Below are positions 49,901 through 56,167 of a DNA stretch of 64,000 bases, piece by piece. Source of the stretch: Octopus vulgaris (taxonomy: Eukaryota); NCBI GenBank assembly GCA_951406725.2, contig OX597820.1:116250001-116314000 (forward strand). The letters run 5' to 3'. The position numbers were made by a program, and so were the translations under genes. The notes beneath the pieces were generated by a model that saw only the letters and a program-made list of their open reading frames with translations, searched no databases and was not told where the DNA came from. Positions within the stretch are counted from its first letter, which is position 1; each line of letters begins with the position of its first letter.

Positions 49901-52900
49901 TTTGAACGGCAGTTTTTCACATAATTTCTAGGTAACTAAAAAACTTTAAACTTCGTATACTGGTAGAATGTGTTTATAAAACATCTTTTTCTCTTGGCTT
50001 TATTGAGAAAATTCTATAGTTTGTAAGATATTTGTTGTTTTTTTTTCTTCAATTTCTGCAATTTCAACTAATCAATGACGTCTATTGAGGTAAAAAAAAA
50101 CATTCTGTGCGGTATGAATATGTCCCTCGTTTAAGAAACAGATTGGGTTTATTTACATTTGTGAAGAAAAAAAAAGATACCCTTCCCCCACCCCTAACCC
50201 TAAAACAGATTGAAATGCAATAGATCGATACTAGGGTCATAATTATGGGTGACAATTTCATATAACACCGCTAGAAAAAACTGCCGTTCAAACCGAAAAG
50301 ATCCTAAGATATGACACAAGTTTATTGCCGAGAAGTTTTTCACCAACAAGATAAATTGAATTTTGCAACTCAAGAAAAATTGAACTCAGAAACAGAAACT
50401 AACTTTTTAAAACTTGTTTTACTGTGCCATTTATGGTGTTGTATCAGCAGAACAGATTAAATAGCGAACAAAATGTTTTGCATATCTAGAGTCGGTCTTT
50501 TACGTTCTGAGTTCAAATCCTGCCAGTTAACTTTTCCCTTCATCTTTTTGATTCAAGGTTCAAGCCAGTTTCTTGTGCTTAGTACAACTTTAAGGTTTGA
50601 ATACACGGGTCAGTTACTCGTGATGGGTAACGGGTTTAGGAGTCCAGTGCTAATGTATGCATGTTGTGGTTTGCTGTGAAATACTAGCGTACCTAGTGCA
50701 TTGCTTTCCTCCTGGGGCCTATAATACTGTTAAGACGGCTCTGATTGTGACAAATGTTAGAAATCACGGTTTCCATATATCACTTAAGACCACGAATCTA
50801 CATATGAACAGGGTCTCTCCAAGATGCAGACATGAGCAATTTATGAAGTTTTTATGAACGACAAACAGTTTGAGTGTAACGCTCTTAATAACCTTAACTA
50901 CAGAACAAAATGGGAAATATTCTCCAAGTCTTAAACATAAAACAACATTATGAAAATCTGTAAATTTATGCATCAGAATAGAGTTGGGAAAATTGAAGAT
51001 GCGTGGAATTTCTACGGGTTTTGTTGATATATTCTAACTAGAATATCATACTTTCTGATAAGTAATGGTAACAAAGCAGAAATTTCTTTACTTACGTAAT
51101 GGCAAATTGGTGATAATGATCAAAGAAATAATACAGATTGTAATCAAAGGATCAGCGTAGTGGCACCAGTGACCTTCTCCGAAAATACTGAGAAGTCCGC
51201 TCAAGATTAATCCAAAAGATGATAAATTATTCCCGATCACGTGAACGCAAAGCAGATATAGATCAACGTGACCTTGCTTTGTTTGAACCTGGTCTGGAAT
51301 TCAAAAGAGAAAACATAAGAGAGAAGAAACAAAACAAACTCAATAGCAACCGCCCCCCCCAAAAAAAAACCCAACGACAAGGGAATCAACCATCCGTCAT
51401 TTCCATTGCTCACTATTCCTGATAGAACCGCCTTCTTCTTTGCTCTAGCTTTAGGTCTCCTAACGGTTGGTTCGGCTTGAAGAATTCTTTTTGTGATCCT
51501 TTCCTGCGAGTTTTAATTACATTCCCGTTGTATCGGATCAGATGTCTATTGAACCCAATCCTCCAGTTCAGGTCTGATAGAACAGAACTACGATCAAATG
51601 CAATCAAGCCGTGACCACCCACTCGTTTTTCTAAACATAGAGTATCTTGATTTAATATGTTCTTCCCATTTTATGACGGAATGATTTGAAAACAGATTGG
51701 CTGCTATTACAAGCAGATCGAACGACAACAAAGAGGCCCGGACGTTGGCTTGTCCTAGCTGTTTGTTTTAGTGGTTTGGTAATGAGGAACAATGATGATC
51801 ATAATCTTCGTTGGCCATCCGCGACTGAAGGACAGGGGTTCAATACGACTAGGTTCAATTTGATCAAGAGTTTATCTCAGAATTCGTAGCATGTATTTGA
51901 GACTAGAGAATATCCAGAAAAAAAAGAGCATTATCCCCCCCCCCCATAAGTGGAAATGTTATATTGCTGCCAAGAGAGTAAGGAAGACAAGTTTCGGACA
52001 AATCTCTTCGTTGTCACTGCTGTATTGCTTCATCAAAGTCCGTAACTTTGCGAGTTCATAAAACACTCGTCATGACCCCATCACCCCCCGCCGCACAATA
52101 GTACATCGCACCTGTTTATGGCAACAAAACAACTCACCACTGACAAAATGCAAACCACCAACTAGGTCGTCAATACGATCAATGATAGTGCAGCGATAAT
52201 TCTAAACCGAAGAGCAAGGCAGCCGGTCAGACACCACGATCAAACCACAATAGTTTCACGTGATCGGTCTGTTAAGTAACCAATCAGCCTGAAGCCATCG
52301 CATGATTCAGTCTTATAGAATTTTCTTCTTGTGCTCTATAAAAATGTGGTTTTTGGCGGTAATTGCAGAATGTCGAGGCAGTTGCACATTCTCATCACCA
52401 TCTCCACTCGTTTAAGGCAGATAGCAGACAGGAATTGCGTCACCACGAATATACCGCAATTATTTTCCAGTCGTAAAGGGCCAACAACAGATTGTTGTAT
52501 CAGTAAGCTTATCGTAGACTCCCAGTGTGTAATTGCTGTTGTTATTTGTAAAAGACTAAAACAGTTAAAACTCTACGTGCAGCAATGAAACCTTCTGTTT
52601 ATTGTTAGAGGGTGTTGTTCAGTTATTTCTTTACGAAGCTCAAGAAATACATTCTCATTCAGCATCTCGGCCAGTTATCATCTCAGACCAGACGACAACA
52701 AATCACACGGACACAGCTCACGACAATAGTAAAAAAATTATCAGTATCTATTTATACATTGTTAACGTTTACTTACATGCGATAAGTTTTTCTTCCGACA
52801 GCTTTACCTCTTGAGAATGTTTGCTGGTACAAGACAAACTGTTATAGCCACAATCCTTGTCGTCTTCATAACATTTCAGCTTCTTGTCCTTTCGTCTCTG

Positions 52901-55900: not shown

Positions 55901-56167
55901 TAACGTTTCTGCCAGCTCAACGCCTTGACCCGTTCATACATTGAATAAGCGATGGGAACGACAGCAGAATATTAAGAATGCCAAATTACTTACACTCATG
56001 ACAATGATGCAAACCAGCAACGAGGCTCCATCAGAAAGAACTCGGTAGGAATCGATTTCCAAAGCCAAAGAATTTGTCAAAACGCTGAAGTATTTCTCCA
56101 CAATAAAATAAATGAAATGAAGGGTTGATATGAAAATAATCGAATATTGGTCACGTTTAAACGACAT
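34823..56167 (-). CDS. SLC30 (ZnT1/ZnT10-like) cation diffusion facilitator, 382 aa; complement(join(55994-56167,52777-53137,51096-51293,42601-42683,38917-39096,34823-34975))
   Basis: Six exons, all GT-AG and phase-consistent (1149 nt incl. stop). Motifs: NSLAL.D SY.VLSD (TM2), KNTYGY.R (TM2-3 loop), GLSVN (TM4), HVIG (TM5), YADP (TM6), [20 protein letters not shown] and a C-terminal Cys cluster, as in ZnT1/ZnT10. Confidence 0.92.
35130..35327 (+). pseudogene. Putative Merlin/ISXO2-type transposase N-terminal remnant
   Basis: [15 protein letters not shown]...QCHC...LRCKTC resembles, from memory, the N-terminal Cys-containing region of eukaryotic Merlin transposases; no DDE region seen. Confidence 0.45.
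35776..35990 (-). mobile_element. RTE 3' UTR copy
   Basis: Same family sequence. Confidence 0.75.
36445..36853 (-). mobile_element. SINE family A
   Basis: Matches family A. Confidence 0.88.
38917..39096 (-). CDS. SLC30 exon 5 (cytosolic CTD): [60 protein letters not shown]
   Basis: tcccag| acceptor, |gtaagt donor; HELHxW and HxxxQPE motifs. Confidence 0.94.
39208..39705 (+). mobile_element. SINE family B tandem multimer
   Basis: About 3 head-to-tail units, the first internally deleted. Confidence 0.85.
39912..40358 (-). mobile_element. Non-autonomous Helitron (same 3' end, different interior with GATA/GACA microsatellite)
   Basis: actagcagtattgcccggcgttgctcggg terminus; A|T insertion. Confidence 0.78.
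40768..40907. repeat. Compound trinucleotide repeat (CAT/CGT/CAC/CGC)n
   Basis: Visible; adjoins RTE-UTR-like catgctggtaagggttggacggtt, so probably an expanded LINE tail. Confidence 0.9.
41220..41449 (-). mobile_element. SINE family B with 17-bp TSD
   Basis: TSD cttcacaggaacataac at 41203-41219 and 41450-41466. Confidence 0.9.
41690..42445 (-). mobile_element. SINE family B tandem multimer (~4 units)
   Basis: ~180-bp period. Confidence 0.87.
42601..42683 (-). CDS. SLC30 exon 4: [27 protein letters not shown]
   Basis: ttttgcag| acceptor, |gtaag donor; LLQxxP-type motif after TM6. Confidence 0.9.
42715..43180 (+). mobile_element. SINE family A with expanded (TA)n
   Basis: Matches family A; ~30 bp from SLC30 exon 4 acceptor. 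Confidence 0.88.
43300..43480 (+). mobile_element. Decayed mariner transposase fragment
   Basis: [23 protein letters not shown] resembles the HPPYSPDLAPSDFHLF motif. Confidence 0.6.
44582..44962 (+). mobile_element. SINE family C (tRNA-Arg-like head; possibly related to the octopus OR SINEs)
   Basis: ggaggcgcaatggcccagtggttagggcagcggactcgcgg...ggtttcgattccc (A/B boxes, TCG in anticodon position). Confidence 0.85.
45335..46292 (-). mobile_element. Decayed CR1/L2-group LINE ORF2 3' fragment interrupted by a SINE
   Basis: [13 protein letters not shown]..., [32 protein letters not shown]...FKCSLDKFL across frameshifts. Confidence 0.85.
45529..45757 (+). mobile_element. SINE family B (~230 bp) with 19-bp TSD
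   Basis: gcgagctggcagaatcgttagc...gagttcaaattcc (B box)...gcctttcatcctttcggggtcgataaa; TSD ggttgaggtaaagtaattg at 45510-45528 and 45758-45776. Confidence 0.92.
47886..48250 (-). mobile_element. SINE family C
   Basis: Reverse complement of 44582-44962. Confidence 0.82.
48982..49401 (+). mobile_element. 420-bp MITE, GG-terminal TIRs, 8-bp TSD (Merlin-like)
   Basis: TIR ggatcttttcggtttgaacggcagttttt; TSD attgaatc at 48974-48981 and 49402-49409; internal TTAGGG-like repeats. Confidence 0.9.
49889..50304 (-). mobile_element. Same MITE, inverted orientation
   Basis: Same TIRs and internal sequence reversed; TSD imperfect. Confidence 0.88.
51096..51293 (-). CDS. SLC30 exon 3 (TM5-TM6): [65 protein letters not shown]
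   Basis: ttccag| acceptor after pyrimidine tract, |gtaagt donor; YADP motif. Confidence 0.92.
52777..53137 (-). CDS. SLC30 exon 2 (TM3-TM4 and loop): [31 protein letters not shown]...[12 protein letters not shown]...EEKLIA
   Basis: caatag| acceptor, |gtaagt donor; KNTYG motif. Confidence 0.92.
53679..54080 (+). mobile_element. SINE family A
   Basis: Matches family A. Confidence 0.88.
54488..55000 (-). mobile_element. Non-autonomous Helitron
   Basis: Minus strand begins TC, ends with hairpin cccgagcaacgccggg plus CTAG, inserted between A and T, no TSD. Confidence 0.8.
55290..55925. mobile_element. SINE family B cluster: + copy nested inside a - dimer
   Basis: TSD gtactaaatttat at 55542-55554 and 55790-55802. 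Confidence 0.87.
55994..56167 (-). CDS. SLC30 exon 1 (TM1-TM2): [58 protein letters not shown]
   Basis: ATG at 56167, |gtaagt donor at 55993, phase 0. Confidence 0.9.

Follow-up and report, generated by a model that had tools for sequence, protein, structure and literature searches.

Can a cation diffusion facilitator (CDF) protein that has exchanged two of the four ligands of its metal site, one of them for an arginine, still export metal, or does it serve the cell in another way? The question is raised by an SLC30 gene in a stretch of 64,000 nucleotides of the Octopus vulgaris genome (contig OX597820.1, G000:C7:116250001-116314000; hereafter the window), where an earlier reading of the DNA, here called the original prediction, had seen a ZnT1/ZnT10-like transporter with a doubly altered site A. 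We find that the window gene is an intact, spliced ZnT1 paralog conserved in molluscs, whose site A reads RD-HN/S instead of the HD-HD of ZnT1; proteins with this arginine are referred to as R-type below.

Built from coordinates, the gene comprises six coding exons on the minus strand, separated by five introns, all GT-AG, and its 1149 nucleotides (nt) encode 382 amino acids (aa) with a single stop. This bears out the claim that reading frame and splice sites are intact, and the codons of all four site A residues lie where they had been predicted. The features are given by window coordinates, with transmembrane helices abbreviated as TM and the supporting evidence at the end of each line:

55994..56312, minus strand: coding exon 1 (TM1-TM2), coding part 56167-55994 with the ATG at 56167, 5' untranslated region (UTR) part 56312-56168; gene model and contigs.
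56042..56044, minus strand: Arg42 (CGA), at the ZnT1 His43 / ZnT10 Asn43 position; model and alignment, invariant in 6/6 R-type sequences.
56030..56032, minus strand: Asp46 (GAT), kept site A ligand corresponding to ZnT1 D47; model and alignment.
52777..53137, minus strand: coding exon 2 (TM3, TM4, His-poor cytosolic loop); model and contigs.
53087-53089, minus strand: Tyr75, replacing ZnT1 E78 (coding exon 2); model and alignment.
51096..51293, minus strand: coding exon 3 (TM5, TM6); model and contigs.
51262-51264, minus strand: Asp189, replacing ZnT1 N244 (coding exon 3); model and alignment.
51241..51243, minus strand: His196 (CAC), kept site A ligand corresponding to ZnT1 H251; model and alignment.
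51229..51231, minus strand: Asn200 (AAT), at the ZnT1 D255 / ZnT10 D248 position; model, alignment and contigs.
51151..51165, minus strand: Cys222-His223 followed by Asp226 (ZnT1 D317) at the outer end of TM6, a candidate outer metal site; 6/6 R-type sequences, 0/146 others.
42601..42683, minus strand: coding exon 4 (end of TM6, start of the cytosolic domain); model, matches P0001 and fits an 85-letter contig gap.
38917..39096, minus strand: coding exon 5 (ZT_dimer; H280, E281, H283, H297, E329); model and contigs.
34823..34975, minus strand: coding exon 6 (ZnT1-type Cys tail, C359-C360, stop); model, identical in P0001 and aligned in Argonauta.

Transcripts were sought in assembled contigs of sequencing runs, of which 24 were listed and 20 contain exon 2, none being recorded as RNA (the kind of run is a guess); eight runs from six studies were compared, and contigs that skip introns served as the evidence of expression. 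Spliced contigs occurred in all eight. Four runs yielded single contigs of 1.7-2.0 kb that join exons 1-2-3 gaplessly and, after 85 letters consistent with exon 4, arrive at exon 5; exon 3 carries no differing letter in 4/4 of these runs. In the other four, exon 1 stops at 55994 and is followed by the start of exon 2, the Arg42 codon is unchanged in 4/4, and the only coding difference, at 56066 in three of the four, is a synonymous third position of L34. The majority transcript retains CGA (R42) and AAT (N200), which speaks against the suggestion that adenosine-to-inosine (A-to-I) editing of AAT restores the TM5 ligand, at the level of contigs, in which rare variants are dropped and minority editing would be invisible; furthermore, the relatives P0003 and P0004 have Ser at this position, and a CGA edited at its A would still read Arg. 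Coding exon 6 lies beyond the stretches compared with the runs. A single one of the 382 residues (N304/H304) separates the protein from P0001, a named O. sinensis protein, and the O. vulgaris annotation P0026 is the same over residues 29-347 only, with a different N-terminus and, as a false C-terminus, a spliced-in 30-base-pair (bp) tandem repeat (20.5 copies, window 31930-32544). No second R-type copy or processed copy was found among 21 candidates scored in the genome.

At the 5' side, two distinct loose contig ends were observed at window 56309-56312 (runs X2/X6/X15 versus X10), which suggests that the SLC30 gene has alternative upstream untranslated exons, with acceptors 3 nt apart. The first 20 letters of both had no match inside the window, and one was then placed just beyond its end, where an upstream 5' UTR exon lies at G000:C7:116314822-116314851, ~0.8 kb past the window.

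In terms of sequence, the window gene is a member of the ZnT1/ZnT10 group. Pfam recognised PF01545 Cation_efflux (93.5 bits) and PF16916 ZT_dimer (30.5 bits), both above cut-off, and the R-type clade falls in a 64-row clade (FastTree support 96) together with the named animal ZnT1/ZnT10 rows. Against chains of the PDB, ZnT1/ZnT10 scored ~120 bits, with ZnT10 first by a small margin, and ZnT7 scored 67 bits, from which the protein appears to lie outside the ZnT5/6/7 branch. An AlphaFold2 model from a 13-row alignment (predicted local distance difference test, pLDDT, 71; predicted template modelling score, pTM, 0.56) has six long helices and a cytosolic domain (alpha-beta-beta-alpha-beta), and its best Foldseek matches are human ZnT1 and ZnT10 (E 1e-15). 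The ZnT1-type Cys tail is retained as C343/C354/C359/C360. The ESM Atlas returned only generic SLC30A1 clusters.

The canonical octopus ZnT1 (HD-HD, 439 aa) was found elsewhere on the same contig (G000:C7:9496813-9517xxx), ~107 Mb from the window gene. Of the window gene's five introns, four agree between the two genes in aligned place and phase, and the fifth, of matching phase, falls in a variable loop; at the protein level the identity is 26%. The presence of this gene, the splicing and the conservation as far as a bivalve (see below) agree with the earlier view of a maintained paralog. The relation to ZnT10 is another matter. Under LG+G4 the R-type clade joins vertebrate ZnT10 at 90/91, and approximately unbiased (AU) tests, run under LG+G4 only, weakly rejected nesting with lophotrochozoan ZnT1 (p 0.04 and 0.025), while under the LG+C20 mixture model there was no supported sister group; all three analyses used 25 rows picked from a larger set after the FastTree result was known. 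Since the sister relation was not upheld under the mixture model and the R-type and vertebrate ZnT10 branches are both long, we do not call the window gene a ZnT10 ortholog; of the predicted ZnT1/ZnT10 likeness the group membership stands.

On the human ZnT1 and ZnT10 chains R42 aligns with H43/N43 and N200 with D255/D248, and site A of the window protein thus reads R42-x3-D46 / H196-x3-N200. The rarity of this arrangement is apparent from 146 new representatives (P0039-P0184), in which the TM2 position is His in 137, Asn in four, Ala in two, Ser in one, a gap in two and Arg in none, and the TM5 position is Asp in 142; a 160-row alignment holds 138 HD-HD rows and six RD-HN/S rows. The R-type sequences form one clade (support 100/100). 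The TM2 Arg together with a TM5 Asn/Ser recurs in O. bimaculoides P0025 and Argonauta hians P0002 (66% identical), with Ser in the two Logan clusters P0003 and P0004, and with Asn/Ser at the TM5 Asp in the bivalve Solemya velum P0005 (~32% identical). In total, R42 and the absence of D200 hold for 6/6 clade members and 3/3 further cluster members, extending to relatives what had been read in O. vulgaris alone. The split between bivalves and cephalopods is Cambrian, and R42 is among the 74 columns invariant in the clade. Conservation was measured domain-wise on proteins, in place of the ratio of nonsynonymous to synonymous substitution rates (dN/dS); conservation of the core far exceeds that of the cytosolic loop in Argonauta (200/276 versus 19/51, p 3e-6) and in Solemya (100/276 versus 6/51, p 5e-4), which indicates purifying selection. 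Word-based and incomplete searches of 201, 3279 and 7997 candidates found no R-type sequence in gastropods or other bivalves, and as the representative library did not return Solemya P0005 itself, the known range of the type is a lower bound. A metagenome scan gave 54 loci, each 20-36% identical, and the six that were aligned are all HD-HD.

The exchanges are not restricted to site A. In ZnT1 numbering the R-type clade has lost H43 (to Arg), D255 (Asn/Ser), M44 (Val/Ile), N244 (Asp/Ser) and H413 (Gln/Glu/Thr), and the E78 position is Tyr/Val, or Asp in Solemya. In the window protein this conserved Glu of the RxE motif is Tyr75 (GRSY), as originally noticed; among the 146 representatives, position 75 is Glu in 133 and position 189 is Asn in 132. 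The TM4-TM5 loop contains 1-3 His in R-type proteins (two in the window protein) versus 5-31 in 13 HD-HD comparison rows. On the other hand, E24, D39, D46, N124, H196, S204 and D226 are kept in 6/6 R-type sequences, as are the cytosolic H280, E281, H283, H297 and E329, and C359-C360 is found in the five full-length rows. All counterparts of the ZnT1 cytosolic ligands H370/H387/E420 and E371/H373/C446/C447 are therefore present (H280/H297/E329 and E281/H283/C359/C360), and the prediction of intact His motifs in the C-terminal domain holds for these; it fails for H323 of HISIQPE, which is not the counterpart of ZnT1 H413, this being position 322, Q/E/T in the clade versus His in 131/146 others. 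One motif was gained: Cys222-His223 ahead of D226 in TM6 is present in 6/6 R-type proteins and in 0/146 other representatives. The fourth outer acid, at the ZnT1 E99 position, is H/S/C in the cephalopod-side sequences.

What these exchanges would mean for transport can be judged from published mutants. In ZnT1, D47N/D255N and D47A/D255A lose Zn efflux, D47A/D255A also shows no Ca flux, which consequently depends on the same site, and E78A and N244A each lose more than half of the activity; E25, D40 and D317 are needed as well, and the cytosolic His mutants tested leave transport unaffected (PMC11051671). In human ZnT10 the Mn site consists of D40, N127, D248 and S252, D248N abolishes Mn transport and M44A, at the position that is V/I in R-type proteins, reduces it (PMC12480533). 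In simulations of ZnT1, protonated His43 repels Zn, and Zn release requires protonated aspartates (PMC11549101).

Compared with its relatives, the R-type protein resembles ZnT1 in its six-helix CDF fold, ZT_dimer domain, Cys tail, kept outer acids (E25, D40 and D317 of ZnT1) and cytosolic ligands, and it departs from ZnT1 in the RD-HN/S site and in the loss of E78, N244, M44, H413 and the His-rich loop. With ZnT10 it shares a non-His TM2 residue, a His-poor loop and the counterparts of D40, N127 and S252 (D39, N124, S204), whereas it has Arg and not Asn in TM2, and Asn/Ser at the counterpart of D248. It is like ZnT6 in that two site A ligands are missing and action through a dimer is proposed, unlike ZnT6 in that the two lost positions of the latter are hydrophobic (PMC7949119) while the R-type has a cation and lacks the TM5 acid. 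Because the window protein belongs to the ZnT1/ZnT10 group, any likeness to ZnT6 is, on the phylogenetic placement, convergent.

Taken together, we consider the chances about even that the window protein is a non-transporting subunit, a pseudo-transporter that would regulate its partners via the kept dimer and cytosolic zinc-binding domain. Arg42, always charged, could take the place of protonated His43, and Asn200, which is neutral, that of protonated Asp255; as both would mimic protonated residues, the site may be frozen in the metal-released state of ZnT1, with the guanidinium of Arg42 probably paired with the retained D46 or D39 and filling the site. The inner entry layer seems to have decayed; the loss of the recruiting residues E78 and N244 on the inner side, along with that of the His-rich loop, would presumably prevent the loading of Zn or Mn from the cytosol. 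The fold, the outer vestibule and the cytosolic domain are kept, the first and the last of these perhaps by selection on a protein that acts by binding. Its most likely partner would be the canonical ZnT1, whose trafficking or rate could be tuned as ZnT6 does for ZnT5; alternatively, it might be a scaffold for the other partners of ZnT1. [quoted passage not shown] A ZnT6-like mode of working would have evolved independently in the R-type.

Several observations weigh against a non-transporting subunit. The strongest is that the pathway residues E24, D39, D46, N124, H196, S204 and D226 are all invariant in the clade, which exceeds what a dead transporter obviously needs. Solemya has acids at the E78 and E99 positions, and the loop of ZnT10 is likewise His-poor, yet ZnT10 transports. 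N43A and N43H of ZnT10 are tolerated without abolishing transport (PMC12480533), ZnT1 H43A keeps ~30% activity, and in outward-facing ZnT1 the Zn is held by three ligands with His43 swung away (PMC11549101); among the published mutants considered here, those at ZnT1 D255 are all double, and no His-to-Arg mutant at the H43 position was found. Moreover, the Arg and Asn/Ser changes are confined to one clade and thus represent one event, which is not counted as co-evolution. Of the three functions originally proposed, a non-transporting subunit, a sensor and a transporter of altered substrate, the published mutants argue against Zn or Mn export, and the three are not separated from one another.

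A tentative alternative, which we hold to be rather unlikely, is that the protein is still a transporter with another substrate, in which the tethered Arg42 would supply the charge of the divalent ion that drives the rocking-bundle cycle, and E24, D39, D46 and D226 with H196, N124 and S204 would move a proton, a monovalent cation, calcium or an anion. Arg or Lys standing in for a coupling cation is known from CaiT and ApcT. The invariance of the pathway residues in 6/6 sequences fits this explanation, as does the fact that D40, N127 and S252, three of four Mn ligands of ZnT10, are retained, although ordinary ZnT1 conserves the pathway residues too, and their role may be structural or that of partners to Arg; the abolished transport of ZnT10 D248N (PMC12480533) and the dependence of ZnT1 Ca flux on the same site (PMC11051671) also oppose it. 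On a more far-reaching account, which we regard as possible at best, this SLC30 lineage since the bivalve-cephalopod split, with a tethered Arg replacing the transported metal and a new outer Cys-His site, would provide the first CDF protein with a role other than divalent-metal export, as either a metal-gated receptor that controls ZnT1 or calcium channels or a non-metal carrier.

It is improbable that the protein is a metal sensor in which extracellular or luminal Zn/Cu binds to an outer site of C222, H223, D226, E24 and D39, causing a change that is relayed to the cytosolic domain and partners with no net transport. The exclusive occurrence of C222-H223 in the R-type, one helical turn ahead of D226, and the retention of the outer acidic layer where the inner recruiting layer is lost would agree with such a site, but the Cys-His pair could serve a disulfide or packing instead, and the E99 position is H/S/C on the cephalopod side. 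Weak zinc export through D46, H196 and nearby acids appears very unlikely, given the joint loss of two of the four ligands, of both inner recruiting residues and of the His loop, and given the fixed positive charge at the site, even though His43 is partly dispensable in ZnT1 (PMC11549101) and site A composition by itself does not predict selectivity (PMC5703985). Finally, a pseudogene, an assembly error or a ligand restored by editing can practically be dismissed, since the frame is open across 35-70% protein divergence, the Arg is kept out to a bivalve, R42 and the loss of D200 recur in relatives, and the spliced contigs of 8/8 runs show no change at the covered codons, even if the clade is fast-evolving (long branches) and contigs hide minority variants.

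Degenerate ZnTs as such are already known (ZnT6); new here is a cation conserved in the metal site from a bivalve to octopuses, which would surprise transporter specialists. The four positions of CDF site A are treated as being filled by His, Asp, Asn or Glu. Quartets in the family survey include HD-ED, and an Arg-bearing quartet was found neither in the survey text nor in its clade table or one supplement, the table being per clade, so that rare members could be hidden (PMC5703985). No description of an R-type SLC30 subfamily was found in searches of the open-access literature. Databases name the proteins as ordinary COT1- or ZnT1-like, and the labels 'cobalt uptake protein COT1-like' and 'zinc transporter 1-like' are probably wrong for the window gene. 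A natural RD-HN protein offers a ready-made mimic of the proposed protonated, metal-released state of ZnT1 and opens to testing whether protonation of His43 acts as the switch for release, and also whether the transport-independent roles of ZnT1 (dimer partner, calcium-channel and Raf-1 binding) can be taken on by a dedicated subunit.

Broken site A quartets were also observed in other ZnT1-group proteins, as HK-KS, HN-AK, HN-HN, HD-HH and ND-RD in unverified gene models (P0144 from Lineus, P0159 from Diaphorina, P0102 from krill, P0063 from Hydra, and P0097), and degenerate ZnT1 paralogs may have arisen several times in animals. The Lineus, Diaphorina, krill and Hydra proteins share with the R-type the group and the broken quartet, but both the TM2 Arg and the Cys-His motif are missing from all four, and the grouping of these proteins with the R-type is weak and prone to long-branch attraction. 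In the SLC30A10 'isoform X2' of whales and serow (P0140, P0172 and its cluster) an unusual TM2 gives an SH or AH quartet half, which may reflect an alternative first exon or an error of annotation. The record P0027 of Intoshia linei (768 aa) contains two ZnT1-like units, a tandem fusion or a merged gene model.

In the remainder of the window, 32799-33554 (plus strand, no Pfam match) and 45900-46300 (minus strand) resemble what we take to be 3' ends of a retroelement of the long interspersed nuclear element (LINE) type. Tail to tail with the SLC30 gene, an open stretch at 22430-22816 (plus strand), which has no Pfam match, resembles the last exon of a short-chain dehydrogenase, with a weak match to DHRS9 (E 0.012).

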